A stretch of DNA of 64,000 bases from Bdellovibrionales bacterium (GCA_019637855.1 JAHBUX010000008.1:28243-92242), one strand, 5' to 3'; positions 12,775 to 48,485 are shown, counted from the first letter of the stretch. The notes: generated by a model not told the origin, from the sequence alone. Numbers and translations: made by a program.

Positions 12775-12790
12775 ACACTCTCTCCGTTTA

Positions 12791-14593: not shown

Positions 14594-14666
14594 CACGACA
14601 CGTCGTATCAAAAAGGTCTTGAGAATTCAATTGGTTCCGCTCCGGAAATCGGTCATTTTACCGGCC

Positions 14667-22170: not shown

Positions 22171-22219
22171 GAAACACTAGAAATATCGTGAAAATATTTA
22201 AAGAAGCAGAGGTACATCT

Positions 22220-23632: not shown

Positions 23633-24437
23633 AAGGTACCAGCTTCCTTTCTGGCATGCAGGGCGTAATCTAGGATTCGCCCTGTTTTTATTTTGGCGGT
23701 CGGTAACAGCGGCCGCTCCCTCCGCCACATTCAATCGCTATCATTGTCTGCGTGACTTGATGCCCATCACTGAACGCGGCGTTTTTATCAATCAAAGGAA
23801 GGGCGTCGAAGATCCTTTCGTGGTCAACAATCGTCATCTCGTTTTTCCTGAGGTGGAGAGCGGCGAAGTCATTGGCTTTTATGTCTACGACGAAACTGGC
23901 GCCTGGCATTACGACGCCGTTGAAAGCAAAGACGGTAAACAGCTGATCAAAGATTTAAAGTTCGACAGCAGCCAGGGAATTCTAGAACTGGTGGCACAGC
24001 CCAAAGGCCTTGAAACTTTCAGCATGACCTATCTTCCAGGATTTAATCCAAAAGAACCCGATCAAGGCGGGTCGGTGATGTTAGGGTCGAGCGTCCTCCC
24101 GGTCGTGGGAGCGATGATCTCCAGACCACTACCCCCAAAGAATGCCTTCAACAACCCAGCCACTGCTTACGAGAGCGACTTGCGGCGCTGGATGTCCAAA
24201 CACTCATCCGGTCGGTTTCCCGCCGATGACAAGAAGGCGGAGATCAAAAAGACCATGCGTCGTCTCTCATTATCCGGCCGTGGGGACGCCTGGGCACCGC
24301 TCGACAATGAACTCAAATTGCGTCAGCAATGGATTCGCACGCATAATTTGGACGAGCAAGCCTTTCGCAGTTTCACCCGCATTATGGACGGCAGCTGCAA
24401 ACGTCAGGGACAAGTCCAAAGCTCATCGCAGAAATAA
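23619..24437 (+). CDS. hypothetical secreted protein
   Basis: ORF with a basic, hydrophobic N-terminus ([32 protein letters not shown]). No motif recognised. It occupies the slot where pilA sits in related pil clusters. Its 3' end overlaps the egtD 3' end by 34 nt. Confidence 0.45.
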
Positions 24438-25378
24438 CCCCGATAGTCCGTGAAGCTGGCCAACCGGGTGAATCCCGTCGTATGCGCCAGTGCTTTGATG
24501 TCGCGCGGAGAGAACTTCCATGACGTTTCCGTATGAATGGCTTCAAAGGCATCGAGGTGCAAAGACATGTTCAAATTACGTAAGTGTACGCTTTGTTCTT
24601 CTAACGATAAAAGCCAACTCTCCATCGCACCGGTCGAGGGATTGTAGACGGCCACATGCTTGAAGCGGTTGGGATTGAAATCGGCATGCACTTCGCGATT
24701 CAAACGTTCCAGCAGATTCATGTTGAAAGCGCGGGTCACGCCCTTGGAATCGTCGTAGGCTTTCTGCAAGACGGCGGGGTCTTTCTTCAGATCTAAGCCT
24801 AAAAGAAGGCGATCGCCCGAATGCAATTTCTCGCACAGGCTATCTAAGAAGACACGCTGCTCGTCGGGCGTAAAGTTGCCTAGACTTGAACCCAGATAAA
24901 GCACCAGGTTTCGCTCCTTGGGATCAATAGGGAGTTTTTCAAATTCACGTTCTATATCCATCACGGCGGGCTCGATGCGCAGATCGGGAAGGCTTTCATG
25001 CAAGCGGGCTTGCAAGTCATCTAAAGCCTGCGCGGAGATATCGACAGGGCGATAGTTTACCGCCACACCTTTGTCTCGAGCGGCCTTCAGCAGATGTAAA
25101 GTTTTGCGTCCGTCGCCGGCGCCAAGTTCGACGAGGTTCAGATATTTCGGAACTCCGCAGTCGGTCAGAATATCGCGCGCATGTCTGTGCAGGATTTCGC
25201 TTTCGCAGGCGGTGGGATAGTACTCTTCAAGATCGGTGATGCGTTCAAACAAGCGGCTGCCTCGATCGTCGTAGAAATACTTAGAAGGAATGCGGCGCGG
25301 GCGCTCGTCCAAGGCCTGCATCAAATCGTAGTGCGGATGTTTTTCTAGAGTGCTAAGCGGATACCTGAAAACTGCCAT
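24404..25378 (-). CDS. egtD: L-histidine N-alpha-methyltransferase EgtD
   Basis: IPSKYFYDDRGSRLFERITDLEEYYPTACE and the SAM-binding LVELGAGDGRKT are typical of EgtD. I chose the internal ATG at 25378; the longer ORF extension is Arg-rich. Confidence 0.85.
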   Translation of the reverse strand: MAVFRYPLSTLEKHPHYDLMQALDERPRRIPSKYFYDDRGSRLFERITDLEEYYPTACESEILHRHARDILTDCGVPKYLNLVELGAGDGRKTLHLLKAARDKGVAVNYRPVDISAQALDDLQARLHESLPDLRIEPAVMDIEREFEKLPIDPKERNLVLYLGSSLGNFTPDEQRVFLDSLCEKLHSGDRLLLGLDLKKDPAVLQKAYDDSKGVTRAFNMNLLERLNREVHADFNPNRFKHVAVYNPSTGAMESWLLSLEEQSVHLRNLNMSLHLDAFEAIHTETSWKFSPRDIKALAHTTGFTRLASFTDYRGYFCDELWTCP

Positions 25379-26496
25379 CTCATCTCCGGATAAAAGAAGT
25401 TGCGGTAAGTGGAACGATAATGTGACTCGGGAGTGGCGAAGCAGCCGCCCCGTAAAACCATTTGGCCAACCATGAATTTGCCGTTGTATTCGGCGAAGGC
25501 GCCGGCAAATGGCCGATAGCCGGGGTAGGCAAGATACGCACTCTGTGTCCATTGCCACAAAGGTGCGCGCGGTTGATCGCCGAAAGCTGCCTCCCATTCA
25601 AACTCCGTAGGCAAACGCGCGTTCTTCCAGCGTGCAAATGCGTCGGCTTCATAGTAGCTGACATGAGCGACCGGCCGTCGCGCGGCAAGAGTTTGCATAC
25701 CCCCGAGGGTGTATTCTTGCCACCCCTCACGCGTGTTGCGCCAATAGAGCGGATGGCGAACGGAGTTCTCTCGCACCCAGCGCCAGCCATCCGACAACCA
25801 GTGTTTGGCCTGTGTATAACCGCCGTCTTCAACAAAGGCGAGGTATTCACCATTGCTAACTAGATCCTTACGGATCTTGAAATCTTGAAGCAGAACCTGG
25901 TGGCGAGGTGATTCGTTGTCGAAGGCGAATTCATCACCGCTTTTGCCGACGGAATATATGCCGCCCGGAACACTCAGCCACTCTTCAGCGACGCTGTCCT
26001 CGTACTCGTTGAAAGCTTGCGCGGCGCTATAGGCCGGATGCGCCGGCTGTTCAAACAAAATTGATTTAATATCCATGAGCAATAGTTCTTGGTGCTGCTG
26101 CTCATGTTGCAAGCCGAGCTCGAGGATGCGTCGCCACGCGGGCTCGTCGGAGCGATCACTGATCAATAGCGACGCTTCATACATGCGCCCGTCGACATGT
26201 GCGCGGTAGGCGTGCACCTCATCCAGAGTCGGGCGCGAAAGCACACCTCGCCGTCCTTGTTCAATGTGTCGCCCCTGACTCTCATAGTAAGAGTTGAAGA
26301 CGTAGGGGAAGCGCGTATCGAACACGTCCATATTGAAAAACTGGCGCAGGCAGAATGTTTCGAAAAACCAAGTGGTATGCCCTAGGTGCCATTTGGGAGG
26401 GCTGACGAAAGGAAACGGCTGCACCGCATGGTCTTCTGTCTCCAGATTGGCGCACAACTGCAAGCTTTGCTCGCGTACAGATTCGTACAGGCGCAC
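25345..26496 (-). CDS. egtB: hercynine/sulfoxide synthase EgtB (DinB_2 + FGE-sulfatase domains)
   Basis: N-terminal DinB-like His motifs (WHLGHTTWFFE, HEQQHQELL). The C-terminal FGE-type domain carries RGGCFATPESHYRSTYRNFFYP. GTG start with a GGAGGAAG SD. Confidence 0.85.
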   Translation of the reverse strand: MRLYESVREQSLQLCANLETEDHAVQPFPFVSPPKWHLGHTTWFFETFCLRQFFNMDVFDTRFPYVFNSYYESQGRHIEQGRRGVLSRPTLDEVHAYRAHVDGRMYEASLLISDRSDEPAWRRILELGLQHEQQHQELLLMDIKSILFEQPAHPAYSAAQAFNEYEDSVAEEWLSVPGGIYSVGKSGDEFAFDNESPRHQVLLQDFKIRKDLVSNGEYLAFVEDGGYTQAKHWLSDGWRWVRENSVRHPLYWRNTREGWQEYTLGGMQTLAARRPVAHVSYYEADAFARWKNARLPTEFEWEAAFGDQPRAPLWQWTQSAYLAYPGYRPFAGAFAEYNGKFMVGQMVLRGGCFATPESHYRSTYRNFFYPEMRWQFSGIRLAL

Positions 26497-28749: not shown

Positions 28750-30888
28750 TCAGTTTGAAAGAGTTTGCGCACTGATTTCGATCAGTTCCGCACGATTGAT
28801 GGGCTTGGTTAAATAGGCGCTAAATCCGCGGGCCAAGGCGCGCTCGCGTTCTTCGCGCAAGGCGTGAGCGGTCAAGGCAATCACCGGAGTCTTAATCCCC
28901 AACTCTTTCAACTTATCGAGCGCGGCCAATCCATCCATGATCGGCATTTGAATGTCCATCAGTATGAGGTCAAAGCCGCCTTGACGGGCTTTCTCAACCC
29001 CCTGTTGACCATCTTTGGCTACGCTCACTAGAGCGCCGGTTTGGGACAAAATCATACTGATCAGAATCTGATTGTCCTCAGAGTCTTCGACCAAAAGGAT
29101 TTTGCGTCCCGACAGATCGCCGGAGAACATAGTGGTCTTTTTCGTGGCGCTATTTTCGCTCGCCATTGTGAACGGTACGCTTAGTTCAAATGAGCTGCCC
29201 ACGCGCTCGTGGCTTTGTTGCAGCACTAGCGATCCCCCTAAGCCGCGCGCGATTTCACGCGACAGCGCGAGACCCAAGCCGCTGCCGCCGAAGCGTCGGG
29301 TGATGGAACTGTCCCCTTGCGAGAATGGCACGAACAAGCGCGAACGATTCTTCTCGGCGATGCCAATACCGGTATCGGCCACGATAAAATGAATTCTCTG
29401 ATCGTTGCGATTGTATCCGACGTGAAAACGGATCTTGCCGCGTTCGGTGAACTTGACCGCGTTGGCCAATAGATTGGTCAGTACCTGCTTTATGCGAATT
29501 TGATCGCTGACGATGTGCGAGGGCAGGTCACTCGCGACCTCGGCTTCAAATTCCACGCCCTTGGCGGCGATGATCGGGCGCCACGCCTCGATGGTTTCAT
29601 TGACCATGCTTGTGAGCGAAAATGTCGACGGATCGAAAGTGAGCGAGCGTGCCTCGACCTTAGAAACGTCAAGCACATCACCTAAAATGCGGGTAAGCTC
29701 CTGGCCGTTGCGTAGGACTGTGTTTAGAGATTTTTCTCTCTCGACTTTGTCGTTTTGTTCCAACGCCAGTTCGGTAAAGCCCAGCATCACTCCGAGCGGA
29801 GTTCGAACCTCGTGGCTGATATTGGCGAGGAAGATCGACTTGGCCTGGTTTGCCGCATCGGCTTCGCGCCTGGCACTTTGACTACGGCGCAAAGCCAGCG
29901 CCACGGCTAAGCTCAACAGCAGGCCAAAGATAAAAAGCAAATAGGGTGTGGAGGTCGCCGATGGTAGTAAAAAACCTTCGGGCGCGGACAGCACAAGAGT
30001 CCAGGTATGGCGGGCAAACTCAAATTGCACTTCGCGATTGAGAATCGGACTGGCCTTGCCGCCATCGGCGTTGGAGTACATCAAGCGTTGCGGCTCAGCC
30101 TTGTCGCCGTCGTAGATCTGCACGAGAAAAGGAATGCGAACGCGCATATCGTCGGCGACTGTGCCGAAGAGGTTGTTTACGCGAAAGCCGGCGTAAACGA
30201 AGCCGATTAGTGCGGATCGGCGTTCTTCGACGGTCTTCAACGGCAGCCCCTGACGGTAGCGCGGCACGATCAGCAAGAAGGCATAAGGATTTCTACCGGC
30301 GTCTGGTTGAAAAGGCGTGACTCGATCGGTGGCGACAGGTTCCCCACTATCACGGGCCCGATCCATGGCGGCTCGACGCTCCGGAGTGGCGGCGAGATTG
30401 GCTCCCGAGGCGTTATTGGTGGACGTCGGGTGCAAACGCTCTAGATAAAGAATCGGGTAGACTGTGGCTTTGGAGTCCTCGCCCCAATTGCGCAGTTCGG
30501 GCACGATCTTGAGCGCCTTTAGGCGACGGTCCGCTTGCGGCACAGTCATGCGCTCGGCATAGCCTAGCGTTTGAATTCCAGGATAATTCTGCCGCAGTTC
30601 CATGCCTTGCACAAAACGGCGGAACTCCTCCATCGTTAGATCCGGATGAATGTCGAAGAGGTTGCGCGTGTACACGACGGCGTTGGTGTAGATATTCATG
30701 CGGCTGCGCAGGCTCGTAACAAAATTGGCAACGCCACGCTCAAAGCGGCCTAGGTTTTCAGCGCGCGCGCTGAAAAGCGCGAAATAGGTCGCGCCCACGG
30801 TCAAGGCCAAGCAGAGGCCGAAAGCCACTGCGGGTGTCAGTAGTCGAGGGAAAAATGGGCGCTTTTGGGTCAAATTTACCTTCCGCAC
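28750..30888 (-). CDS. hybrid sensor histidine kinase: CHASE extracytoplasmic domain + HisKA/HATPase + receiver
   Basis: Two TM segments bracket a domain of about 270 aa with a CHASE-like pattern (YPILYLERLHP...NLAATPERRAAMDRARDSGEP). H-box SHEVRTPL, DTGIGI, GSGLGL. C-terminal REC domain (DLILMDIQMPIMDG). Confidence 0.85.
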   Translation of the reverse strand: MRKVNLTQKRPFFPRLLTPAVAFGLCLALTVGATYFALFSARAENLGRFERGVANFVTSLRSRMNIYTNAVVYTRNLFDIHPDLTMEEFRRFVQGMELRQNYPGIQTLGYAERMTVPQADRRLKALKIVPELRNWGEDSKATVYPILYLERLHPTSTNNASGANLAATPERRAAMDRARDSGEPVATDRVTPFQPDAGRNPYAFLLIVPRYRQGLPLKTVEERRSALIGFVYAGFRVNNLFGTVADDMRVRIPFLVQIYDGDKAEPQRLMYSNADGGKASPILNREVQFEFARHTWTLVLSAPEGFLLPSATSTPYLLFIFGLLLSLAVALALRRSQSARREADAANQAKSIFLANISHEVRTPLGVMLGFTELALEQNDKVEREKSLNTVLRNGQELTRILGDVLDVSKVEARSLTFDPSTFSLTSMVNETIEAWRPIIAAKGVEFEAEVASDLPSHIVSDQIRIKQVLTNLLANAVKFTERGKIRFHVGYNRNDQRIHFIVADTGIGIAEKNRSRLFVPFSQGDSSITRRFGGSGLGLALSREIARGLGGSLVLQQSHERVGSSFELSVPFTMASENSATKKTTMFSGDLSGRKILLVEDSEDNQILISMILSQTGALVSVAKDGQQGVEKARQGGFDLILMDIQMPIMDGLAALDKLKELGIKTPVIALTAHALREERERALARGFSAYLTKPINRAELIEISAQTLSN

Positions 30889-30979
30889 TCGGTGATCTCA
30901 TCGGCCGGGCGCGCAAGGCAAGAGAAAGCTTTATTTCGCTACAGTGCCGCCTTCCGCAGCGGCACATGCAGCAAGTTCT

Positions 30980-31300
30980 CTAGCGACAGGTTCTCAACTG
31001 GCAGGATGTCGAAACTGAGCCGCAGCGGCTCATCGCAATCCGTCGCGCTGAATTGCGATTGGTACTGGAGCCGGTAAACGTGCGTCCCTGACGACTGCGC
31101 ACCCAGCAGGTCCACATGCGCGAACCTCCGTGCCATTGGACATTTTCAATCATTCCGGCCCAGGTGTTTTGGTCAAGATCTTCGCCGATCTCTAACTCTT
31201 CGGCATCGGTCAACACGAGTTCGTCCGTAGGCGCGGAGTCGGTGTTGGCATAGACATTCATTGAGCTCGCAAGAACTATACACGCGATTGTTTTGAACAT
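30980..31300 (-). CDS. small secreted 4-Cys protein, paralogue of 27931..28185
   Basis: Strong AGGAGG SD and a signal peptide MFKTIACIVLASSMNVYA. An acidic linker precedes WTC..S..G..F.G......A..IAMSRC-x6-C-x4-C. Confidence 0.6.
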   Translation of the reverse strand: MFKTIACIVLASSMNVYANTDSAPTDELVLTDAEELEIGEDLDQNTWAGMIENVQWHGGSRMWTCWVRSRQGRTFTGSSTNRNSARRIAMSRCGSVSTSCQLRTCR

Positions 31301-31421
31301 ACATACCTCCTAGGTATGACTTGGTTCGTACTCCTATTTTGCAGTCGAGCAAGCGGATCTTTTTCAAGCTCTGGCGCATACATCTTGCATTCAAAGTCGA
31401 CAAAAGGAATGGAGGTGGCTA

Positions 31422-32192
31422 TTGAAGCCCCAACTGATTTTATTTGTCTTAGTCGCGGCCATTTTCGGTACGAACGTCGGAGCAAAAGAAGACGAAGAGA
31501 TCCAACCTGATGGCGAAATGCATCGCATGCCACTGATGATTGGCGACACAAAAATCGTAAGTGGCAATTTGGCTCATCGAACAGGTTTGGTTCTCGATGA
31601 AGAGGGCACGGTTTATATATTGTCCGTCAGCGGAGCAAGTCACGCCACTCTCTTCCGCATAAGCAAGAAGAACACGGCTAAGCAATTGATCCTCTATCGC
31701 GGTTGGCCCTATCTGCTGGATAATCACGGTCGCCTTATGGCCTTTGATGCCTCCTGGTACACGTCTTTGCGTAACAAGTTTCCTTATCTCAGCATGCGCT
31801 TTGTGAAGACCGCTCCTCTTGCTGTGGGCGTCGGGTTAAGCGGTTACTTCATCAACTTGATCGACGGCACATTTTTAGGACTTCTGCCTTCGCGCGACGT
31901 CCAAGCCTTCACTACGATTCTGGGTGGGGTGCTGGTCTTTTATGGATTGGACATCGGCAACACGATCTTAAATCGTTCACACCGCGCGATCGATATGGGC
32001 TCTAATTTCTTCACTCTCACGGTAGCTAAAGGCGTCAGTGACATCGTTCCTCATCCTGATTTCGATGACTACCTTGTAGAGACCAAGGCTTGGCGGAAGG
32101 TCGTAAAGCGAGAGCCTTTGAGTCTCTTGATCCCGCACTCTTTGGTGGGCCGATCATGCGCCGAGTACTTGACTCGGCTCAGTCTACTTTAG
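31422..32192 (+). CDS. hypothetical signal-peptide protein with two central hydrophobic segments
   Basis: TTG start with a GGAGGTG SD 4-5 nt upstream. Signal peptide MKPQLILFVLVAAIFGTNVGA. No family recognised. Confidence 0.5.
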   Translation: MKPQLILFVLVAAIFGTNVGAKEDEEIQPDGEMHRMPLMIGDTKIVSGNLAHRTGLVLDEEGTVYILSVSGASHATLFRISKKNTAKQLILYRGWPYLLDNHGRLMAFDASWYTSLRNKFPYLSMRFVKTAPLAVGVGLSGYFINLIDGTFLGLLPSRDVQAFTTILGGVLVFYGLDIGNTILNRSHRAIDMGSNFFTLTVAKGVSDIVPHPDFDDYLVETKAWRKVVKREPLSLLIPHSLVGRSCAEYLTRLSLL

Positions 32193-33122
32193 CTACGGTT
32201 CATCCACCTCCATTTCGCTGGGTTGTACATTGGGCGGCACCGGTGGTTCACCGGTCCGCAGGATCTCGACGCTAGTGACACGGTAGTTGGTTGAGTAGGC
32301 ATATAGAATCGAGGACAGCCAGGCGTGTACCTCGAAGAGGCGTACGTAGCTTAAGCGCACCACTTCACCGGTCAACATGGCTAAAACTAAGTGATCAAAC
32401 ATGCCTTGGGTATTTACGCTTAAGCGCAGGTAGTTGTTGCCGAGACTGCCCAGTTGAAAAGTGATTTCATAAGATTTGCGAATGAAGTGGGAGAGGGATG
32501 CCTTCACCACGCGTCCCTCGACAAAGCCTGCGGCTGGGTTAATGGCTTGCGCGACCGGCAGTTCGCCGCGCTCGACATGGTAAAACGTGGGCGCCGGGGA
32601 GGCCGGATTGGTGGGAAAAACATCTTGCACGTAATTCAGCGTGTCGGTCGTAAACGCGCGTAGTGACCGCGTACGGGTGGCGCCAAAGATCGAGTTGGTC
32701 GAGCGTGTGTAGTACACCACGACTGGAACCAAACCGATATCGCGGAAACGATCGAACAGGACGGGGCTCACCATACTAAAACGCCAAGGGTTGGCTTCGA
32801 TGGAACAGAGCTCGTTCATTTGATCTTGCATCGAGAGACGGCTGTCTACTCGAGTTGAGCGTTGAATTCGTTGCGTAAACTGGACTTCACACTCGCGATC
32901 GCGAATCATTTCGGGACTGGAGCCAAAGCCCATCATGAACTTGCCTTCGAAGTTCCATAGGAGTCGTGCTTCCACGCGTAGCATGTAGCCCAAGCGAAAT
33001 CCTTCTTCAGTGAACGTGGGGTTGGGCGACCAACGGATACGTGGAACGCCAGGTGGCAGTTCGGTCTGAGCGTGCAAGGTGAGGGAGGTCGTAGCGAACA
33101 GGACGAAGAGAAGAGCTTTCAT
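32193..33122 (-). CDS. hypothetical secreted protein (third gene of the coupled operon)
   Basis: Signal peptide MKALLFVLFATTSLTLHA. Its ATG overlaps the upstream stop in ATGA (33119-33122). No family recognised. Confidence 0.6.
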   Translation of the reverse strand: MKALLFVLFATTSLTLHAQTELPPGVPRIRWSPNPTFTEEGFRLGYMLRVEARLLWNFEGKFMMGFGSSPEMIRDRECEVQFTQRIQRSTRVDSRLSMQDQMNELCSIEANPWRFSMVSPVLFDRFRDIGLVPVVVYYTRSTNSIFGATRTRSLRAFTTDTLNYVQDVFPTNPASPAPTFYHVERGELPVAQAINPAAGFVEGRVVKASLSHFIRKSYEITFQLGSLGNNYLRLSVNTQGMFDHLVLAMLTGEVVRLSYVRLFEVHAWLSSILYAYSTNYRVTSVEILRTGEPPVPPNVQPSEMEVDEP

Positions 33123-35134
33123 GGGTACCATCCTTTTGTCTGTCCAAAGCTATCGAGTGAGGCAAAGCCGAAGTCGGTGCGGATTTTTATGATGTGAGGA
33201 TCTTCTTTGGATTCGTACCAGCGCGAAGGTGACTCTCCCGGCGCGACGATGAGAATCCCCCGCGCGCGAATTTTGATGTCGGGATGTCGCCGGATAAATT
33301 CCGATAGACGTTGCAGGCCTTGTCGACATTTCTTGCTGTTCAGTGTCGCGAAGGGACTGCATTGGATGGGCACTTCGATCCGCGCCAGCAACGTCTCTTG
33401 CAGTTCGGCCACTTGTCGGCGCTCGCTCTGAATGTCTGCAAGTGTTCCGGTATCGTTGGCCTCTGCGGCACTCCAATCGAGGAATGCTTTGATCTCTTTC
33501 CAGTCGGCACGTGCGGGAATAGATTCGCGCAGTTTCATGCCTGACTCGCTTAATTCTTCGAAGTCGGCGCCCACGCGTAGAACCTCGGTGGCTCGGTCAA
33601 ACGTCGCAGGAGATTGGCGCATGAGGATCTCGAGCTGACGCAGAGAGTGCCAACGCTGTCCGATGCTCAGCGACGGATCGAATTCCATGATCAGACCGGT
33701 GTTGAGATGGATGTTTTCTTTGTAGGCTTCAAAGTGTTCAACACCCGTCGCCAGGCGGTGGAAACTCGGATTCAATAGTATAGGCATGACGAATTCGTAC
33801 ATGCGGACGGGAGTGAATATGTAGGGCAGTTGAACCATGGCATTCCATTCGCCATAGTGGATCTGCGGAAGATCTCCTTGCACCAGATGTATCTGCAAGA
33901 GTGAACTTTCGCGCCCCTCAAGGCGCGTGATACTGCCGTTGTAAAGTGCGCGCGCGAAGGAACGTAGTCCATCTATGCATTGCAGATCCGAGAGTCCTGT
34001 CCAAAACGAATCGTCACAGCCGACATGGTAGCCATAGTCGGTGCGAATCAGTTCCGACAGGCGAGCGGGGATCTGGGCGAGATGCGCATTGGAGAATTCA
34101 AATGCCTCTTTAGCCAAGGCGATAGTGTCGTTGCCGGGAATCGCCAGCAGTTCCTCGCGGTGTTTGTCTAGCCATGGGCGAAACAGCTGCACCATCTGCG
34201 CTTGTACTTGGATCAAGAAGACGATCTGCACTTGAGGCTCGCGTGAATGCTGCGAAAGCAACTCGATGTCACGCATTTGCTCGGTCCAGCTGGACGTGAT
34301 GTTTGTTTGTCGTTCGGGCGGCGAAGGGTTTAACTTGGCCTCCGCAAACTGATAGGTGACCGATTCGGCCGCAAAGGCCACCGAGCGGGCACCGAAGGCG
34401 GCCCAAGGCCCGATGGCCAAAGCGCTGCTTCCGAGGATTTTCGCCGCCAGTGGCGGCGCTACCTGCCATAAGAAAATGGACGCCAGGGTTGCGGCACCGA
34501 TGAGAGTGAGCGAAACGCGTTGGCGACTTTCCAGCTCCGTTTGTGCCGTTTTTAAAAGGTCCGTGACCATGTGATCGAAGCCGGCGAGACCGGGGTTGCC
34601 AATGCCTTTTAAGTGAAAGTGACTCAGCTCGCGAGCTAGATCGGCGAAGCTTTGGGCGGTCTCCTGGCGGTTTGTGAACGGACACTTTGTTAGATCTCTG
34701 TGATCTAGAGAGGAGTAACCGCCTTCGCCTCCGCTCACAAAGAGCGAATGAACGGCAAAAATAGCAGAGGTGATCAAATGAAAGCGCGCGCGGGCGCCGA
34801 CATCCGCAGTCTGCAAATTCGCGAGACTGTCCTTTAGCTCGACTAGCAGATCCGCCACCGTAGTGGAAAAGCGCTGACAACGCTGCGAGGGGTTGTTGGT
34901 CATTGCCGTGGACCAGGCCTCCGCGAAGGCTTCGGTTCGGTTTAGCAACTGCTGCCGGCTCTGCAGGTAAGTTTTGTCATGTAGCGTGGCGGGGACTCCG
35001 TTGCGCAGCAAAGCGAGGGTTTGCAAAGTCTCGGATTCCGACCGAGCCTGCGGAGGGAATCCTAGGAAAAAAGAGAGAGCGACTGCCCACACTCGACGTG
35101 CGGCAGCCGCTTTCTTGCAAGGCAATGGTCTCAT
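33119..35134 (-). CDS. hypothetical 671-aa envelope protein (second gene of the coupled operon)
   Basis: The internal ATG at 35134 overlaps the upstream stop in ATGA (35131-35134). The N-terminus is signal-like (RRVWAVALSFFLGFPPQA). Central hydrophobic segments (LTLIGAATLASIFLW, ILGSSALAIGPWAAFGA). No family recognised. Confidence 0.6.
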   Translation of the reverse strand: MRPLPCKKAAAARRVWAVALSFFLGFPPQARSESETLQTLALLRNGVPATLHDKTYLQSRQQLLNRTEAFAEAWSTAMTNNPSQRCQRFSTTVADLLVELKDSLANLQTADVGARARFHLITSAIFAVHSLFVSGGEGGYSSLDHRDLTKCPFTNRQETAQSFADLARELSHFHLKGIGNPGLAGFDHMVTDLLKTAQTELESRQRVSLTLIGAATLASIFLWQVAPPLAAKILGSSALAIGPWAAFGARSVAFAAESVTYQFAEAKLNPSPPERQTNITSSWTEQMRDIELLSQHSREPQVQIVFLIQVQAQMVQLFRPWLDKHREELLAIPGNDTIALAKEAFEFSNAHLAQIPARLSELIRTDYGYHVGCDDSFWTGLSDLQCIDGLRSFARALYNGSITRLEGRESSLLQIHLVQGDLPQIHYGEWNAMVQLPYIFTPVRMYEFVMPILLNPSFHRLATGVEHFEAYKENIHLNTGLIMEFDPSLSIGQRWHSLRQLEILMRQSPATFDRATEVLRVGADFEELSESGMKLRESIPARADWKEIKAFLDWSAAEANDTGTLADIQSERRQVAELQETLLARIEVPIQCSPFATLNSKKCRQGLQRLSEFIRRHPDIKIRARGILIVAPGESPSRWYESKEDPHIIKIRTDFGFASLDSFGQTKGWYP

Positions 35135-37092
35135 CGCGAGTCTTGATTGGTCAGCTCGACGGTAAGACGGTTCACCTGATCTTTGGGAATCAGGCTTTCG
35201 AGGTAAAGAGCCTCGTGGCCTTCGCCATAACGGCGTCCTTCGTTGTAACCCTCCATCATAAATGCATAGAGAGGAACAGCCGAGCCCACGGTGACCGCTG
35301 TAGCCCACGGAAGATCGAAGTTTTTAAGCTTCGGTTTCAGAGAGCTCACGGCTTGATTGGCCACATTGCGGGTTTTTTGAGCCGCCTCGGCGACGCCGGC
35401 ACGAGCTCGTTGCCCAAAGGTGGGTTGGGCTGCCGCGATCGACACGACTTCGTCAGCTGAAGCTTCCGTCGTCTGAACTGCCGGTGTGGCACCAACAGGC
35501 GTGGTTAGCGGAATATCGCCATCGTATTTCGCTTCGGCTACTGACTTTTTGCTGCGCGAGCGTGTGGTTTTGGCTTTGGCAATAGGCACACCACTTTGTT
35601 CCGCTTCTTCGACGGTCAAGCGTGTGGGGGTGATCGCGCCCGTGCTGTCGGCGACCATCAAGAAGTCTTTTCCGCCTTCGTCAGGATGTTGAAAGCGGAT
35701 CTGTCGAACGATGTCGTCGGCTTCGGCGGCGGGTAGTTCACGCGACGCTACGATCACAGGGCGCGGACTTAGGGTATCCCAGCGTGACATTGAAAACACG
35801 ATGCGACGATTTCCATTGAGCGCCATATCTTCCCATTGATCTACTACGGCGTATTTCAGGCCCGGCATATTGGTAGGCTCGAATTGCTGAAAGCCGGCCG
35901 AGGCATGCTGGGCACGATCCAATCCTAAGCCACGTGCGATGTTCGCATCTACACCGAGCGCGGTAATGTCTCGACGTACGATCTCTTGCGAGCCGAGAGG
36001 AAGATTGGAGATTGATCTACGCAGGCCGTAGCGAGCGGTGGGACCGGCCTCGCTGCTGGCTTTGTACGGGAACAGTGAGCTCACCTTGTTACGTGCGGTC
36101 TTGTAAGACGAACTCACTTTTTCCGCGGCGGTAGTAAGTGTGCGTCGTGGGCTGAACTCGTGCACAAAGTGGCGTGCGCCCTCAAAACCGTGAAAGCCGG
36201 CAAAGGCGCCTAGAGCCAAAGAGGTGCCTGCGACCCAAAGTCCGTCGCGCAGCAGTTCTCCGCTGCCGTCCACGCGAATGCGGTCATCAAGCTGCGCTTG
36301 AAGGTAAGCGGTGCGTGCGGCCACATCCTTATCATAGAGGTTGTTCTCCGATAGTCGGCGCAAGCCCAGCTGCAGCTTCATCACTTTAGCGCGGGCTTGA
36401 TCGGGTTCGTTGAAGATCTCATCGATCAGCAAAGCCGAGTAGGCGTCGGCCCGCTCGGGATCACGCTCTGAAATCACGGCGGTTAGCAGCTCGGACATCT
36501 CATCGTTGGGGTTGATGACCTCTTTCACCACGTCTGCACGAGCAGGCTGTGATTGCGCCATGGCGATCTTCAGTTGCTCCACTTCGCGATCGCGTTGCTG
36601 CAGAGCTTGTTGATGAATGACATCTATCGAATCTTTGCCCAGCTCATTGGCCGGAGTGGGATTGATTAGAGTTTGCGTTGATTCCGTAAGCTCCCGGGTG
36701 GTGTCTTGAATGCCCTTACCCACCGAAGTCAGCTGATCTTCGACGTAAGTAGCTGCTTTGCCTACTTGATCCTTTACTGTGTTGTAGCCTCTTTCATAAA
36801 AAGGAGCGTTGTCGTCCGAGGGACGGGAAGTCGATGTGGGTGGAGGAAGGGAGGCATAGGGAGGAGGTGAGTTCTGGGAAGCACTACGCTCTTGATTTTG
36901 CTGAGGAGTGGACCCGTCGGAAGTTCTGGTTGGCGGTGGGGTTTGTGTTTGCGGTCTGGCCGGTTCAGTTTTTGTTACCTCTGGAGTCGGCTGTCGATTT
37001 TGTTCCGGTGGCGTGTTGCTTTTTCTTTCGCAGGCCGAAATCAGGACTGCCGACGCCACTAGTGCGAGCGTCATCGATCGAAAACGGGTCAT
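35131..37092 (-). CDS. hypothetical lipoprotein with Pro/Thr/Gln-rich linker (first gene of the coupled operon)
   Basis: Strong GGAGGTG SD and a lipobox (AVLISAC). About 90 aa of low-complexity P/T/Q/S sequence, then two hydrophobic segments (WVAGTSLALGAFAGF, ATAVTVGSAVPLYAFMM). No family recognised. Confidence 0.65.
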   Translation of the reverse strand: MTRFRSMTLALVASAVLISACERKSNTPPEQNRQPTPEVTKTEPARPQTQTPPPTRTSDGSTPQQNQERSASQNSPPPYASLPPPTSTSRPSDDNAPFYERGYNTVKDQVGKAATYVEDQLTSVGKGIQDTTRELTESTQTLINPTPANELGKDSIDVIHQQALQQRDREVEQLKIAMAQSQPARADVVKEVINPNDEMSELLTAVISERDPERADAYSALLIDEIFNEPDQARAKVMKLQLGLRRLSENNLYDKDVAARTAYLQAQLDDRIRVDGSGELLRDGLWVAGTSLALGAFAGFHGFEGARHFVHEFSPRRTLTTAAEKVSSSYKTARNKVSSLFPYKASSEAGPTARYGLRRSISNLPLGSQEIVRRDITALGVDANIARGLGLDRAQHASAGFQQFEPTNMPGLKYAVVDQWEDMALNGNRRIVFSMSRWDTLSPRPVIVASRELPAAEADDIVRQIRFQHPDEGGKDFLMVADSTGAITPTRLTVEEAEQSGVPIAKAKTTRSRSKKSVAEAKYDGDIPLTTPVGATPAVQTTEASADEVVSIAAAQPTFGQRARAGVAEAAQKTRNVANQAVSSLKPKLKNFDLPWATAVTVGSAVPLYAFMMEGYNEGRRYGEGHEALYLESLIPKDQVNRLTVELTNQDSR

Positions 37093-37193
37093 TGTTCACC
37101 TCCAAAAAGTGAGAGAGCGCTGCGGAGCGATGACTACATCATTGCAGTTTAGTTAACGACATCGCTAACCGCATGTTTTCGCGTTGTCGATTA

Positions 37194-37209
37194 AGCAAGA
37201 TCGCGGCCA
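37194..37209 (-). promoter_or_regulatory. sigma-54 (-24/-12) promoter candidate for the three-gene operon
   Basis: The minus strand reads TGGCCG-CGATC-TTGCT, matching TGGCAC-N5-TTGCW with exact GG-N10-GC spacing. It lies about 100 nt upstream of the ATG at 37092. Confidence 0.5.
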
Positions 37210-37373
37210 GTGCGGGACTCAAGTACATTTGATTGCTTTAGTCGTGAGGGTTCTTTTTTGGTTTGGAGAAGGCATTTAGCCCCGGCGTTTAAGTCATCCG
37301 CTGTTGTTTACATGCGGATTTTACCCGCGCGGTGAGAGAGTGGGGGTCCTGAGATTACTTTTGTGGAGCCGCC

Positions 37374-37408
37374 TTAAAACAAAAGCGCGAGGTATAAACC
37401 TCGCGCTT
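37374..37408 (-). terminator. rho-independent terminator after lipoprotein paralogue 1
   Basis: Perfect 11-bp stem AAGCGCGAGGT / ACCTCGCGCTT with a 4-nt loop. On the minus strand it is followed by TTGTTTTAA. It starts 34 nt after the stop at 37443. Confidence 0.8.
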
Positions 37409-37442
37409 CGAAGAACTTCATGATGGAGAAACTTCAGGGCTG

Positions 37443-38780
37443 CTAGTCTACTTTATAAGAGAACCACAAGTCGAAGATCAGGTCGATCGAGCCGTCGATG
37501 CGTCCCACGATGGACTTCATCAAGGTTTGGTTGCCGTACTGGTCGGTCTCTGCAAACTCTGTGGAGAAATCTAAATCGATGTAAGAGATGCCGGCTTGGC
37601 GCAAGCTGATTAACTCGTGGGCTTGAGCGATGCCGTCGTGGTTGCGGTCCATCCACACTCTTAGTCGTGAATAGACAGCGTCACGTTGATCGATAAAGCC
37701 ATCGGCCTTGCCGGACTGGAAGCGTCCGTCTTCAGTGGTGCCATCGTACTTAGCCAGAGCGGCGTAACCGTCGGCGGCGAACTTCTGATCCGGTCCCAGT
37801 GTTGCGTTACCAAAGAGTTGATCGATGCCGCGTACGCGTCCACGTGCATCCGGCAGGGCGAGCATGCCGTATTCGTGGTTGGTGAACCAGGAGATGCGAA
37901 CCGGTCTGTGGTCGTTCTTGGCGCCAAGTATATCGAACATCACACCGTCTTCTTGCGAGCTCAGGGCGATAGGCAGAGGACGGGTCGGATCTGAGTTCAC
38001 ATGGATGACGAGCGGTGAAGTCTTGTTGTCACACAGGGCGTCCGCAACTTCAGACGCAACAGAGGTGTCTTGGTTGGCGGCGTAGACGATGTTCATCGAA
38101 CCAAATGCGCTTCTGTACGATGCGTTGGCAAAATCAAGGTTGACCACAGAGCCACTGGCAGGTTTGGCCGAAGGGCAAATCTTGGCGAGGTCTGCGTAGG
38201 TGACACCCTTTTTGTAGATCATCGATTTGATTGTGCTCGTGTTGCTCGTGCAGGCCTGATCATTCACAGAGAGAGTCATCGCGAGACCCTCGGCGAAGGC
38301 ACGTTTCAAGCTGGTTTTCGATTTAACATAGGCATCCGAGCAGGTGAGTACGAAAGCGACGCCATCACCGCCGGGTTCAGCCAATTCGGTTTTGGGTGGC
38401 GGGATCACAGTGCGTGGATCTGTCACCACTCCGCTGGCGCTGTCTCCGCTCGAAGGTTGATTCACCGAACCACCGGCGTTGCCACCGTTGGACGGTTGAT
38501 TGATGACTCCACCGCTGCCGCCGTTGTTGCTGCCATTTGAAGGTTGATTGATGACTCCGCCAGCGCCACTGTTGCCTGATCCGGGCTGTCTGATCACGCC
38601 ACCGGCGTTGTCTTCGACGCCAGGTTGCTTGATGACTCCGTTAGCTGCGTCGTCGGCCTGACTGCTGCTCATCACAGAGGTCTTGGCTAGAAATTGGCTT
38701 TTGCTGGAGAACTTGGTTGCGGAGCATGCGGATAAGGCCGCTGCCCCAAATAAAAGCAGAACTACACGCTGTACGTTCAC
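37443..38780 (-). CDS. lipoprotein paralogue 1: Gly-rich G-G-V-I-x-Q-P repeat linker + EF-hand-like C-terminal domain
   Basis: GTG at 38780 lies 5-6 nt after GGGGGA. Lipobox ALSAC. Repeats GGVI[KRN]QP[GS]. The C-terminus has a canonical 12-residue EF-hand loop DRNHDGIAQAHE within an FDILG...LFGNAT...DGFIDQRD..RVW.DRNHDG pattern. Confidence 0.7.
   Translation of the reverse strand: MNVQRVVLLLFGAAALSACSATKFSSKSQFLAKTSVMSSSQADDAANGVIKQPGVEDNAGGVIRQPGSGNSGAGGVINQPSNGSNNGGSGGVINQPSNGGNAGGSVNQPSSGDSASGVVTDPRTVIPPPKTELAEPGGDGVAFVLTCSDAYVKSKTSLKRAFAEGLAMTLSVNDQACTSNTSTIKSMIYKKGVTYADLAKICPSAKPASGSVVNLDFANASYRSAFGSMNIVYAANQDTSVASEVADALCDNKTSPLVIHVNSDPTRPLPIALSSQEDGVMFDILGAKNDHRPVRISWFTNHEYGMLALPDARGRVRGIDQLFGNATLGPDQKFAADGYAALAKYDGTTEDGRFQSGKADGFIDQRDAVYSRLRVWMDRNHDGIAQAHELISLRQAGISYIDLDFSTEFAETDQYGNQTLMKSIVGRIDGSIDLIFDLWFSYKVD
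38454..38642 (-). repeat. in-frame imperfect tandem repeat encoding the Gly-rich QP linker
   Basis: The DNA unit GGTTGATTGATGACTCC[A/G]CC recurs. It encodes NGVIKQPG / GGVIRQPG / GGVINQPSNG x2 / GGSVNQPS. Confidence 0.8.
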
Positions 38781-38970
38781 GATATCCCCCACGGTTCGTT
38801 TCGTTGTGTGTTTGTGAGAATCGGAGCAACGTCCAGCGAATGGCTCTCTTGAATAGATTAAGCGCAGTGCGTCGGAAGGTAAAATAGAAACTTGAGGAAT
38901 TACGATTTTGTGAAGGTGATTTTATTAAAAGTGCAGTGGATACAGGGGGTTATTTATTAAAAAATGGGAA

Positions 38971-39357: not shown

Positions 39358-40584
39358 CTAGTTCAAGTCGATCTTGAACCACAAGTCGAAGATCAGATCC
39401 ATGGAGCCGTCGCTGCGGCCGACGACTGATTTCATCAGCGTCTCGTTGCCGTGCTTGTCGGTTTCTGCGAATTCGGTGGAGTAGCTTAAGTCGATGTAAG
39501 TGATTCCCGAGGCGCGGAGACTCTTAAGCTCATGCGGTTGAGCGATGCCGTCATGGTTGCGATCGACCCACACACGTAGGCGTGAATAAACAGCGTCACG
39601 CTGATCGATAAAGCCATCGGCCTTACCGGATTGAAAGCGGCCGTCTTCCGTCGTGCCGTCGTATTTGGCGAGAGCGGCGTAGCCGTCGTCGGCCGACTTG
39701 TTATCGGGTCCAATTGTAGCGTTACCAAAGAGTTCATTGATGTTGCGCACGCGTCCTGCAGAATCCGGAAGTGCGAGCAAACCGTATTCGTTGTTGGTAA
39801 ACCAGGAGATGCGAACAGGCATGTTGTTACCTAAGATGTCGAACGTCACGCCGTCTTCAGGCGCGCTCAGCGCGATAGGCAGAGGGCGGGTCGGATCGGA
39901 GTTCAGATGAATGACCAGAGGTGAAGTTTTCTCCGCGCACAAGTCGTCGGCTACTTCGCTCGCGGGCGAAGTTCCTTTGTTCATCGCATAGGCAACATAA
40001 ATTCGGTCGCCGTATGAGGGGAACGTGGAATTGCCAAGCTTTAATGCCACGGAAGCATTGGGTGACATAGCATTCAGAGAAGGGCAAATCTTGGCCATCT
40101 CTCCGAAGGTGATGATGTCTTTCTTGGTCACGAGATCCTTGATTACGCTTGCGTTGCTTGTGCAGACTTTATTGTTTATGAGCAGGCTCATGGGAAGATT
40201 CTGAGCCACGGCCCGCTTGAAAGTTGTCTCAGTTGATGAAAGGGCGTCCGAACACATGCGTGTGAGATTGATGCCATCATTCAGAGTGTAGTGCACAGGC
40301 TCTTCTTCGTTAATGGGTTGCGAGACGTTGCCGCCCGCTCCGTCACTACCGGGTTGCGAGATGTTGCCGCCAGTGCCGTCACTGCCAGGCTGCTTAATCA
40401 CTCCGCCACTATCTTCGTCTGTCGAAGGCTGATTGACTTGCCCGTTGTATTCGTCGCCTGCGTTGCGTGAGGCGAAAACGGAGGTCTTTGCTAGAACTGC
40501 CGATTTGGTTGAAAACTTTGTTGGGGAGCAGGCGGCCATAGCCACTGTCCCAAGTAGAATGAAAACAATTTGCTTTACGTTCAC
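39358..40584 (-). CDS. lipoprotein paralogue 2 (shorter repeat linker, same EF-hand-like C-terminal domain)
   Basis: GTG at 40584 after GGGGGA. Lipobox AMAAC. Repeats GGVIKQPGSDGTGGNISQPGSDGAGGNVSQP. The C-terminal 165 aa or so are highly similar to paralogue 1, including a 40-aa identical run. Confidence 0.7.
   Translation of the reverse strand: MNVKQIVFILLGTVAMAACSPTKFSTKSAVLAKTSVFASRNAGDEYNGQVNQPSTDEDSGGVIKQPGSDGTGGNISQPGSDGAGGNVSQPINEEEPVHYTLNDGINLTRMCSDALSSTETTFKRAVAQNLPMSLLINNKVCTSNASVIKDLVTKKDIITFGEMAKICPSLNAMSPNASVALKLGNSTFPSYGDRIYVAYAMNKGTSPASEVADDLCAEKTSPLVIHLNSDPTRPLPIALSAPEDGVTFDILGNNMPVRISWFTNNEYGLLALPDSAGRVRNINELFGNATIGPDNKSADDGYAALAKYDGTTEDGRFQSGKADGFIDQRDAVYSRLRVWVDRNHDGIAQPHELKSLRASGITYIDLSYSTEFAETDKHGNETLMKSVVGRSDGSMDLIFDLWFKIDLN
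40315..40446 (-). repeat. in-frame Gly-rich QP repeat region of paralogue 2
   Basis: Encodes NGQVNQPS..GGVIKQPGSDGTGGNISQPGSDGAGGNVSQP. It has fewer units than paralogue 1. Confidence 0.7.
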
Positions 40585-40768
40585 AAAATCCCCCACGGTC
40601 ACAATTAAATGCTTGTGAGATCTGTCTAACGTCCAGCGATTGCTCTCTACTTAAGATTAAGGCGATTGCGAATGTGGGTAAATGAGAAAGTTTTAGATTG
40701 TGAAGATTTATAGATCGAGCGCAGAAAAATAGAACAACAACAGTGGTTTAACACGGCCAAGAATTAAG

Positions 40769-45285: not shown

Positions 45286-45351
45286 ACGCCAGGCATGGCG
45301 GCGAAGAGTAGGGTGAACAAGTAACTTTGAATGCTCTTGCAGGAGGTCGCA

Positions 45352-46683
45352 ATGACCAATAGATTTCGCCTTATAACGATCAAGTTGTCTTTAGTTGGCT
45401 TTGCCGCTTTTCTTTCGCCATGTTCGAACGCGGATGAGAGCGCTGCGCCTTTTGCTTTCGGTGACTTTTCATGGATGCCCGGAAACTTTGGGCCTAGCGA
45501 AAGTAGACTAGTCACAAAATATTTTACGCCCGAAATCCGATTGGATTCCGCTTATCATTATTCGTTCGCTAATCCGAAGGACAACACAATCTCTGGTTCG
45601 AGCGAAGTATTTCGCCATCAAGAATTGCAGCTTACTCAAATTGGTGTCGGTGGAGATTTTAACGTGGACAACGTGGGATTTCGCTTGATGACCCAATTCG
45701 GAATGTATTCGCAATCCACGCCACGAAATGACCCAAGTAGTGAGCGCGGACAATGGCAAACCGCCGATGCCTACCGCTACATCTCGGAAGCTTACGGAAG
45801 CTACCATTTAGATTACGATCATGGGATCAATATTCAGGCGGGTATCTTCATGTCCTATGTGGGACTGTGGAGCTACTACAACTTCGACAATTGGACTTAT
45901 CAACCGTCTTACGTTTCTTCAAATACACCGTGGTTTTTCAATGGCGTCCGGGTCCAATACTTCCCGACCGACAAACTGAAAATCGAACCCTGGCTCATCA
46001 ACGGTTGGCAAGCCTACGGTATGTTCAACAACTCGCCCGGTCTGGGACTTCAAGTGGCTTGGCGTCCGGCCGAATGGTTCGGATTTACCTCAAACAATTA
46101 TTACGGCGCCGACACTTTGAATACTCCGGATCGAAAGCGCATGCACACCGACAATAGCGCAATGGTGAGATATTATATTCGAGATTCCGCTGGACTTAGC
46201 CGCGCCGCCGCCTCTTTGACCGTCGATGCAGGATGTGAGAGTGGAGGGGGAACGGATTGCGAACGATCCTACTTCTTAGGCTTCATGGCGTACAATCGAC
46301 TTTGGTTTAATCACAATCGCTATGGTCTCACTATCGGCGGCGGGATGATTAATAACCCTGGCCGTTATCTGGTGCTCGTCCCTCCGATCAACGGCGCCAC
46401 CGCCTATTCCGGTGCTCCGACATGGTTTACGGCAAATCCTGGCGACCCCTACCGCGCTTGGGACGTTCAGGTTTCGGGAGACTACAGCCCAACTCGTAAC
46501 CTCACCTTTCGCTTGGAATACAACCATAGGTGGGCAAGTATTCCTTATTTCACCGGACCCGAAGGCGTAACTCCGCCGGGAGGAAATGTGGGGACGCCTG
46601 GTTCTGATCCTGGAACTGGATGGGCGCCGGATCTCGTACAAACCGAAGACCGTATCACCGCTTCGATGCTCATTAGGTTGTAA
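45352..46683 (+). CDS. outer-membrane beta-barrel porin-like protein leading the kdp operon
   Basis: AGGAGG SD 5 nt before the ATG at 45352. Signal peptide and lipobox-like LSPCS. Alternating amphipathic strands rich in Y/G/N/F and an aromatic-containing C-terminus (ASMLIRL). Located 11 nt upstream of kdpF. Confidence 0.6.
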   Translation: MTNRFRLITIKLSLVGFAAFLSPCSNADESAAPFAFGDFSWMPGNFGPSESRLVTKYFTPEIRLDSAYHYSFANPKDNTISGSSEVFRHQELQLTQIGVGGDFNVDNVGFRLMTQFGMYSQSTPRNDPSSERGQWQTADAYRYISEAYGSYHLDYDHGINIQAGIFMSYVGLWSYYNFDNWTYQPSYVSSNTPWFFNGVRVQYFPTDKLKIEPWLINGWQAYGMFNNSPGLGLQVAWRPAEWFGFTSNNYYGADTLNTPDRKRMHTDNSAMVRYYIRDSAGLSRAAASLTVDAGCESGGGTDCERSYFLGFMAYNRLWFNHNRYGLTIGGGMINNPGRYLVLVPPINGATAYSGAPTWFTANPGDPYRAWDVQVSGDYSPTRNLTFRLEYNHRWASIPYFTGPEGVTPPGGNVGTPGSDPGTGWAPDLVQTEDRITASMLIRL

Positions 46684-46694
46684 CGGAGATACCT

Positions 46695-46778
46695 ATGGAT
46701 TTTGTCATCGCCGGAATCATAGCTTTCGCTCTCTTGGGGTATCTTACGTACTCGTTGTTCTATCCTGAGAGATTTTGA
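46695..46778 (+). CDS. kdpF: K+-transporting ATPase subunit F (27 aa; below the ORF-track cutoff)
   Basis: atg gat ttt gtc ... translates to MDFVIAGIIAFALLGYLTYSLFYPERF*. It is a single TM ending in the KdpF-typical P-E-R-F and lies directly upstream of kdpA. Confidence 0.8.
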   Translation: MDFVIAGIIAFALLGYLTYSLFYPERF

Positions 46779-46786
46779 GGTGGAAA

Positions 46787-48478: not shown

Positions 48479-48485
48479 GGTGATT

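Follow-up and report, generated by a model that had tools for sequence, protein, structure and literature searches.

A conserved cluster of putative envelope protein genes behind a sigma-54-type promoter element in an uncultured Bdellovibrionales bacterium

Gene content and coupling of the cluster

The window analyzed here is a 64-kb stretch from a Bdellovibrionales metagenome-assembled genome (GCA_019637855.1 JAHBUX010000008.1:28243-92242). It contains a cluster of four genes, termed g1 to g4, which recurs in other genomes and may encode a membrane-anchored complex of the cell envelope under sigma-54 control. In the list of open reading frames (ORFs) of the window, g1, g2, and g3 are three consecutive genes on the minus strand, and g4 adjoins g3 on the opposite strand. 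NCBI entries identical to the proteins of g1, g2, and g3 (KF799_10660, KF799_10655, and KF799_10650, respectively) are each named "hypothetical protein". The features of the cluster are as follows.

31374-31389, plus strand: sigma-54-like element GCGCATACATCTTGCA upstream of g4, with a perfect -12 half and a displaced GG in the -24 half (GG-N12-GC)
31422-32192, plus strand: g4, 256 amino acids (aa), recognized from orthologs adjoining g3
32193-33122, minus strand: g3, 309 aa, from the ORF, orthologs, and a structure model
33119-35134, minus strand: g2, a fusion protein of 671 aa, from the ORF, an AlphaFold2 model, and split forms in relatives
35131-37092, minus strand: g1, 653 aa, from the ORF and orthologs
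37097-37103, minus strand: Shine-Dalgarno sequence GGAGGTG of g1, 5 nucleotides (nt) before the ATG
37194-37209, minus strand: sigma-54-type element TGGCCGCGATCTTGCT, GG-N10-GC, ending 101 nt upstream of the g1 ATG
37382-37409, minus strand: intrinsic terminator of the upstream gene (37443-38792), a stem of 12 pairs, 7 of them G-C, ahead of a T-run

Start and stop codons of successive genes overlap by 4 nt at two ATGA sites, one between g1 and g2 (35131-35134, read gcgATGAgac) and the other between g2 and g3 (33119-33122, read cccATGAaag). Because the starts of the orthologs fall on the same methionines, the lengths of 671 codons for g2 and 309 codons for g3 are fixed. A preliminary description of the locus had proposed three coupled minus-strand genes of 653, 671, and 309 codons, a strong terminator upstream of the unit, and a backbone-like G+C content that gave no obvious sign of recent import. 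All of these points held: both overlaps were read directly and the starts agree with the orthologs, the stem at 37409-37382 closes gene 37443-38792 and insulates the cluster from upstream read-through, and the G+C content is 0.548 in the cluster vs. 0.529 in the window. Its three-gene unit stands with respect to g1-g3 and falls short in size, as the conserved fourth member, g4, had been missed. Recent import and a defense island were both ruled out as an origin of the cluster, given the backbone-like G+C content and zero matches to mobile elements or defense genes.

Co-conservation in other genomes

Relatives of the cluster proteins are scarce. A word-indexed search of 5.8 billion proteins returned, besides the queries themselves, one relative of g2, four of g1, and twelve of g3, and an exhaustive HMMER search found 68 g2 relatives among 1.84 billion representatives. 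These 68 are a mixture of fused proteins (650-700 aa), N-terminal halves (330-360 aa), and C-terminal halves (360-380 aa). All family members that were looked up are metagenomic, none coming from a cultured organism, and those labeled with an organism are mostly Bdellovibrionales. A g3-based scan of 185,579 species genomes recovered only a Pseudobdellovibrionaceae metagenome-assembled genome and a short contig binned as Xanthobacteraceae. A metagenome scan with g1 gave no confirmed locus, while the g3 scan succeeded.

The order of the triad is conserved across the recovered loci (designated L001 onward). Genes of 662, 679, and 303 aa in L001/L002 and of 634, 685, and 299 aa on a 107-kb JGI contig follow the order of g1-g3 in the window, and the same order is found in L007, L008, L013, L014, and another JGI contig. 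Overlaps of 4 nt are seen again in L001, L006, and L007, and the co-conservation of the triad expected from the preliminary description thus extends to its overlaps. Orthologs of g4 (38-47% identity to the g4 of the window) lie beside g3 in L001, L007, L008, L010, L011, and L013. The two genes are convergent and 0-3 nt apart in the window, L001, L007, and L010, with zero gap between the stop codons in the window, and g4 is co-directional with g1-g3 in L008, L011, and L013. Two JGI contigs have a gene of ~250 aa 3' of g3, where the assignment as g4 is from size and position alone. No relative of g4 was detected in L014, although g1-g3 are present. All four genes therefore occur together in the window, L001/L002, L007, L008, and L013, with gene sets of matching size on JGI contigs, and the partial contigs L006, L010, L011, and L012 contain every part that fits. 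The other neighbors in the window are conserved in none of the loci.

That the set is found repeatedly at 24-46% identity amid entirely different flanking genes, that the 4-nt start/stop overlaps are maintained, and that the two halves of g2 are fused in some genomes, a classic sign of functional linkage, all argue against the view that these are merely neighboring exported proteins whose conserved order reflects shared regulation or inheritance rather than one machine. We consider this view unlikely, while noting that g3-like proteins are found alone in many soil contigs and beside unrelated genes in L003, that g4 is inverted relative to the triad in one lineage, and that profile comparisons show no homology between the components (profile-profile tests among g1, g2, g3, and g4 were all negative, with no paralogy).

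Encoded proteins and family searches

No component belongs to a described family, and the sole significant resemblance is at the level of fold, to a mitochondrial domain in an unrelated context. Scans of g1-g4 against Pfam, NCBIfam, PADLOC, and PHROGs gave nothing at the curated cut-off or at a credible E-value, and library scans of 42 g2, 13 g3, and 5 g1 relatives gave nothing above noise. PADLOC and PHROGs had zero matches to g1-g4 at E-values up to 0.1, giving no sign of anti-phage or phage-derived membership, and sequence searches of the PDB (single-sequence and profile) returned weak or artefactual matches only. The earlier statement that the proteins match no family is thus upheld for the sequences and withdrawn for the fold, as g2, probably in its C-terminal half, shows significant similarity of fold to known structures; the remote homology and structure searches it had called for produced no hidden Markov model match and no whole-protein structural match to a characterized system.

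The g1 protein starts with MTRFRSMTLALVASAVLISAC and carries the bacterial lipoprotein pattern [LVI][ASTVI][GAS]C with a conserved Cys. Its lipobox is LISAC, and Cys21 is invariant across 5 orthologs (ISAC, LSAC, VTAC, LSAC, and LTGC). Orthologs of g1 comprise P0017-P0020 and those of L008, L013, and L014. The lipobox is followed by a disordered P/T/Q-rich tether from residue 22 to ~95, then by amphipathic and helical regions, and two Gly/Ala-rich hydrophobic segments (285-303 and 594-612) are conserved across the g1 family. Between these segments lie a basic region and a small conserved domain (~400-480), and a C-terminal motif is conserved as well. The Shine-Dalgarno sequence, in the form TTGGAGGTG, is kept in L001 and L006. 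The GGAGGTG sequence, lipobox, tether, and two hydrophobic segments of the preliminary description are accordingly all present, the tether measuring about 75 aa rather than about 90.

The family-mean net charge around segment 285-303 of g1 is -0.8 before and +5.6 after, and around segment 594-612 it is +3.0 before and -2.0 after. Because of these flanking charges, residues 304-593 would be cytoplasmic under the positive-inside rule, and g1 may be a lipid-anchored protein that additionally crosses the membrane twice, with segments that are marginally hydrophobic. No family match was found for g1, only weak matches of the ApoO, YtxH, and RcsF-linker types. In g1, as in RcsF-type tethered lipoproteins, a long disordered linker rich in Pro comes after the lipobox, and the RcsF profile matches weakly over residues 12-100 (E = 0.006). 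However, this match is confined to the signal peptide and the low-complexity Pro-rich linker, and the other 550 residues of g1 are unrelated.

The g2 protein consists of two halves. The N-terminal half (~1-335) has a signal peptide, a helical bundle, and a hydrophobic helical hairpin (207-256) that is conserved across the g2 family, and the C-terminal half (337-671) consists of three tandem alpha/beta repeats. Three Cys pairs are conserved (86/151, 373/386, and 592/603). In L007, L008, L013, and one JGI contig, the halves are two separate genes, split near residue 322-345, and the split C-terminal halves bear signal peptides of their own. The signal-like N-terminus and central hydrophobic segments described earlier are therefore present, and the view of g2 as a single gene is amended to a fusion of two. 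An AlphaFold2 model built with 42 relatives has a predicted local distance difference test score (pLDDT) of 91.5 and a predicted template modeling score (pTM) of 0.83. Residues 29-330 are all helical in the model, and the hydrophobic segment is borne by a helix of 52 residues (183-234) together with the helix that returns from it (243-268), which form the least confident part of the model. The repeats were also detected by hhalign comparison of slices of the family alignment (units 1 and 3, E = 9e-8; units 2 and 3, E = 3e-6; units 1 and 2, E = 7e-4), and units 1 and 3 have one conserved Cys pair each.

A Foldseek search of the g2 model against the PDB gave five significant matches, with a probability of 1.00 and 313-409 aligned columns, and a search against viral structure models gave zero. 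Three of the five are chain F6 of a trypanosome mitoribosome assembly factor (7pub, 7pua, and 6sga; E = 6e-8 to 2e-6), with human TCAIM (8i0k_C, E = 1e-5) and 6yxx_E3 (E = 7e-4) making up the rest. Chain F6 is apparently mt-SAF6 of Trypanosoma brucei, a name taken from the chain label and the literature (PMC8784144) rather than from the Foldseek output. The match probably belongs to the C-terminal half of g2 because the aligned length fits that half, which in the model would share a fold class of repeated alpha/beta units with TCAIM and mt-SAF6. TCAIM binds native, folded OGDH E1 via beta-repeat motifs (PMC13311838). Unlike these proteins, g2 has no sequence-level match to them: both 8i0k and mt-SAF6 are absent from the g2 profile search of PDB sequences, and g2 and 41 of its relatives gave no Pfam match of any kind, to the TCAIM/DUF4461 type or, in g2, to the J-domain (DnaJ) included. 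The g2 domain also differs in its predicted export, in its disulfide-type Cys pairs, and in being fused to, or encoded beside, a helical bundle with a membrane hairpin. The contexts are unrelated, with g2 in a bacterial envelope and TCAIM, a human DNAJC-type co-chaperone, in the mitochondrial matrix.

The flanks of the g2 hairpin are slightly acidic, and its short loop has a conserved Lys. These charges are consistent with a hairpin embedded in the inner membrane, its loop facing the cytoplasm and the two domains lying on the periplasmic side. Because the hydrophobic helices are even in number, both Cys-bearing domains would lie on the same side of the membrane.

The same architecture bears on the main alternative for the module, a secreted toxin of several components that inserts into membranes in the manner of alpha-helical pore formers. 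In this view, the marginally hydrophobic helical hairpins of the N-terminal half of g2, of g4, and perhaps of g1 would enter a prey membrane, with g3 and the C-terminal half of g2 as targeting modules. Several co-expressed components have a Gly/Ala-rich hydrophobic hairpin that is too weak for an obvious anchor, the family is confined to a predatory lineage, and the N-terminal half of g2 is a helical bundle whose 52-residue helix and return helix have a hydrophobic tip. In the model, this half resembles the protruding long helical hairpin of ClyA-family alpha-pore formers (AhlABC/SmhABC and YaxAB/XaxAB), which likewise comprise several co-transcribed components. AhlC of the tripartite pore former does appear in the Foldseek list for the whole g2 model, but the match is non-significant (6h2e_P, E = 2.6, probability 0.05). 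The module has no significant structural or sequence match to the ClyA family, and neither this family nor colicins or any other toxin family emerged from the Pfam or PDB searches. Its proteins differ further in their Sec or lipoprotein signals and extra domains and have no known lytic function. With g1 a lipoprotein, no secretion system linked to the cluster in any locus, and no homolog from a cultured predator, a toxin appears quite improbable.

The g3 protein has a signal peptide, as first described, and an invariant Cys pair (Cys78/Cys106). Its model (pLDDT 68.8, pTM 0.71) is mixed alpha/beta, and the last 90 residues are ordered strand-strand-strand-helix-strand-strand, which is OB-like. 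A Foldseek search of this model against the PDB gave zero significant matches. The order of elements in these 90 residues is that of periplasmic or secreted OB folds (CusF/SilF and the B subunits of AB5 toxins), and SilF is among the top partial matches (probability 0.96, template modeling (TM) score 0.69 on the target). However, all E-values to SilF and the AB5 B subunits are at least 0.05 on a moderate-confidence model, and the N-terminal 170 residues are without any match. Pentatricopeptide matches to g3 were rejected as artefacts because none contains a stretch that is significant by itself and their targets are all designer repeat proteins.

Distant g3-like proteins (32-36% identity) occur without g1, g2, and g4 in L003, L009, L015-L030, and many soil metagenome contigs. 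As g3-like genes occur alone or beside unrelated genes, the g3 family is wider than the module. The lone gene in many of the soil metagenome contigs encodes ~283 aa. In L003 (1886-10816), the g3-like gene is located downstream of a class A penicillin-binding protein (transglycosylase and transpeptidase) and two unannotated proteins. The neighbors of this g3 homolog (402 aa and 1058 aa) were tested as diverged forms of g2 or g1 and are neither.

The g4 reading frame opens with TTG, preceded by GGAGGTG, and its product combines a signal peptide with a pair of Gly-rich hydrophobic segments at ~130-184.

Putative promoter elements and regulation

The element upstream of g1 agrees with TGGCAC-N5-TTGCW at 9 of the 12 specified positions, and both dinucleotides and the spacing are exact, so the sigma-54 motif with exact -24/-12 spacing proposed in the preliminary description was found. 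A canonical -24/-12 element is present upstream of g1 in four of seven orthologous loci, at 35-46% g1 identity, and the intergenic DNA around these elements is otherwise unalignable. Besides the window, the elements are as follows.

L001, upstream of g1: TGGCAACAATCTTGCT, 82 nt to the start codon
L006, upstream of g1: TGGCAGCGATCTTGCT, 75 nt to the start codon
L008, upstream of g1: TGGCACATCAAATGCA, 114 nt to the start codon

The upstream region of g1 in L007 has TGGCAC and TTGCG at the wrong spacing, that of L013 has TGGCAA and then, one base off the proper register, TTTGT, and that of L014 has no recognizable sigma-54 element. No sigma-70-like promoter was detected in the intergenic region upstream of g1. 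As motif counts in the window alone prove nothing, the support for the sigma-54 motif comes from its conservation in other genomes.

A related element precedes g4. Its counterpart in L001, TCGCACGCATCTTGCA (~11701-11716, minus strand), agrees with the consensus at 11 of 12 positions and has C in place of the first G of GG. The g1 and g4 elements have the core ATCTTGCA in common, and the -24 GG of the g4 element is deviant in both the window (displaced) and L001 (CG). L007 has TGGCATTCTAATTTCA upstream of g4 instead (~15925-15940, minus strand). The pattern C-N4-ATCTTGCW has only two occurrences in the 64 kb, one upstream of g1 and the other upstream of g4.

This shared core is the basis for another interpretation, that ATCTTGCW is not a sigma-54 promoter but the site of another regulator or sigma factor common to the g1 and g4 units. 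The altered -24 half at g4, the absent or non-canonical motif in L007, L013, and L014, the lack of statistical significance in the window alone, and the lack of a detectable activator site would all be compatible with it. On the other hand, TGGC-N7-TTGC (ATGC in L008) is kept upstream of g1 at exact spacing in four genomes despite unalignable surroundings, and L008 keeps TGGCAC while the bases between the halves have changed, which is the pattern expected from selection on the -24 and -12 contacts; the genome is also rich in sigma-54 activators. Another regulator is therefore possible, if on the unlikely side, and the conserved motifs make sigma-54 control of g1-g3 in the genome of the window likely.

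The window codes for three NtrC-type activators with Sigma54_activat, receiver, and HTH_8 domains (E = 1e-58 to 1e-74). One (11368-12774, within 11368-14611, minus strand) is paired with a CHASE2 histidine kinase, another (22220-23632, within 16484-23632, plus strand) is PilR, preceded by genes for a PilS-like kinase and a PilB-type ATPase in a type IV pilus region, and the third (59209-60543, minus strand) stands alone. An unpaired hybrid kinase with a CHASE domain (28750-30888) is located ~0.5 kb from g4. The rpoN gene lies outside the window, and an RpoN-like gene, bd0843, has been reported in B. bacteriovorus (PMC3464611). The preliminary description had also placed the site of an enhancer-binding protein at an inverted repeat upstream of the promoter. 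The 6-bp repeat exists (37296-37319), but its reading as an activator site was dropped, as such repeats occur at 1.75 per 300 bp in the window, which is the chance frequency, and this one has no counterpart in the orthologous upstream regions.

The operons pspABCDE (with the activator PspF) and zraP (with ZraSR) of Enterobacteria are sigma-54-dependent envelope operons. The module resembles them in having a -24/-12 promoter before envelope genes, which implies expression only upon the signal of an AAA+ activator. Unlike them, it has no adjacent activator gene or detected upstream activator site, and Pfam and NCBIfam searches of g1-g4 found no PspA/IM30, PspB, PspC, or ZraP/CpxP family domain, giving no sign of membership in the phage-shock (Psp) system.

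The predicted 5' untranslated region of g1 (37093-37182, minus strand) has a folding energy of -27.5 kcal/mol (z = -2.4), somewhat better than shuffles. It contains a small hairpin in which the Shine-Dalgarno GGAGGUG pairs with an upstream CACUUUU and which has no Rfam match; the equivalent position in L001 has CUCC-AUU-GGAG. This hairpin may hide the ribosome-binding site. An Rfam scan of 30500-38000 found zero RNA families.

Neighboring genes

Upstream of the cluster are two paralogous lipoprotein-like genes (37443-38792 and 39358-40602, both minus strand) with 57% identity and no Pfam match. They have Gly/Asn/Gln-rich repeats of the GGVINQPS type and a conserved C-terminal domain, and are not located beside the module in other genomes. 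At 24404-26496 (minus strand), a histidine-specific methyltransferase (Methyltransf_33, E = 7e-98) adjoins a protein with DinB_2 and FGE-sulfatase domains; this is the EgtD/EgtB domain pattern and suggests ergothioneine synthesis in this Bdellovibrionales genome. The potassium-pump genes for KdpA and KdpB (46775-50564, plus strand) are preceded by an OmpL-like beta-barrel porin (BBP2; 45331-46683, plus strand).

A putative inducible envelope complex

The module, with four genes and five domains, is restricted to uncultured Bdellovibrionales-like bacteria and may encode a signal-induced envelope complex that is anchored in the membrane and oriented toward the periplasm; we see this reading as about evenly balanced between right and wrong. 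Export to the envelope is indicated by a signal peptide or lipobox on each component, with separate signal peptides on the split C-terminal halves of g2, and by conserved Cys pairs in g2 and g3; the hydrophobic segments conserved across each family lend this prediction further support. A complex is suggested because the set is conserved while its flanks change, the 4-nt overlaps are maintained, and g2 undergoes fusion and fission. Physical association of the proteins and their stoichiometry are predictions.

Several observations weigh against this reading. With Kyte-Doolittle scores of only 1.2-1.7 and a Gly/Ala-rich composition, the hydrophobic segments are perhaps not true membrane spans, and the flanking charges of g4 fit no simple topology. 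The TCAIM-like matches of g2 have TM scores of only 0.36-0.41 on the target without sequence support, and the g3 model is of moderate confidence only. For the promoter, TGGC-N7-TTGCW occurs 3 times in the window vs. 1.64 expected, a count equaled in 24 of 100 shuffles and not above chance, and the three most divergent loci (L007, L013, and L014) are without a canonical sigma-54 element. No activator gene adjoins the cluster, and no conserved upstream activator site was found, with no 9-mer meaningfully common to the four upstream regions.

If the cluster does encode an inducible envelope complex, sigma-54 RNA polymerase would bind the -24/-12 element at 37209-37194, as its conservation suggests, and transcription would start only once one of the NtrC-type activator ATPases of the organism was switched on. 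As sigma-54 transcription needs such an activated ATPase, the module would be signal-induced and not constitutive. Ribosomes would terminate and restart at the ATGA overlaps of g1, g2, and g3, which would tie their outputs together. In the window, g4 lies on the other strand and would be expressed from a sigma-54-like promoter of its own; in other genomes it belongs to the operon of the triad. All four proteins would then be exported. The g1 protein would be lipid-anchored at Cys21 on its long disordered tether, with residues 304-593 possibly in the cytoplasm. The g2 protein would be held in the membrane by its helical hairpin, with both disulfide-bearing domains in the periplasm and its three TCAIM-like repeats acting as a protein-binding platform. 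The g3 protein would be a soluble periplasmic partner with an OB-like ligand-binding end, and g4 a further membrane-associated subunit. The best guess for the function of such a complex is that it serves, when induced, as a scaffold or binding platform in maintaining the envelope or in handling periplasmic material.

Attachment, invasion, and self-protection of Bdellovibrio-like predators depend on their envelope machinery, much of which is undescribed. Bacterial genomes commonly contain conserved operons for hypothetical envelope proteins, and this module is one of many. It is compact and well delimited, with export signals, a confident model of its largest protein, and a plausible on/off promoter, and is therefore directly testable. 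A more specific proposal is that g1-g4 form an unrecognized signal-induced envelope apparatus of Bdellovibrionales-like predators, anchored in the inner membrane by hairpins, in which g1 links cytoplasm and periplasm and the C-terminal half of g2 is a bacterial periplasmic relative of TCAIM and mt-SAF6. In this full form the proposal is doubtful; if true, the TCAIM/mt-SAF6 domain, so far eukaryote-only, would gain a bacterial counterpart and a new cellular role. A TCAIM-like fold in an exported bacterial protein is unexpected and may help to explain what the repeat does.

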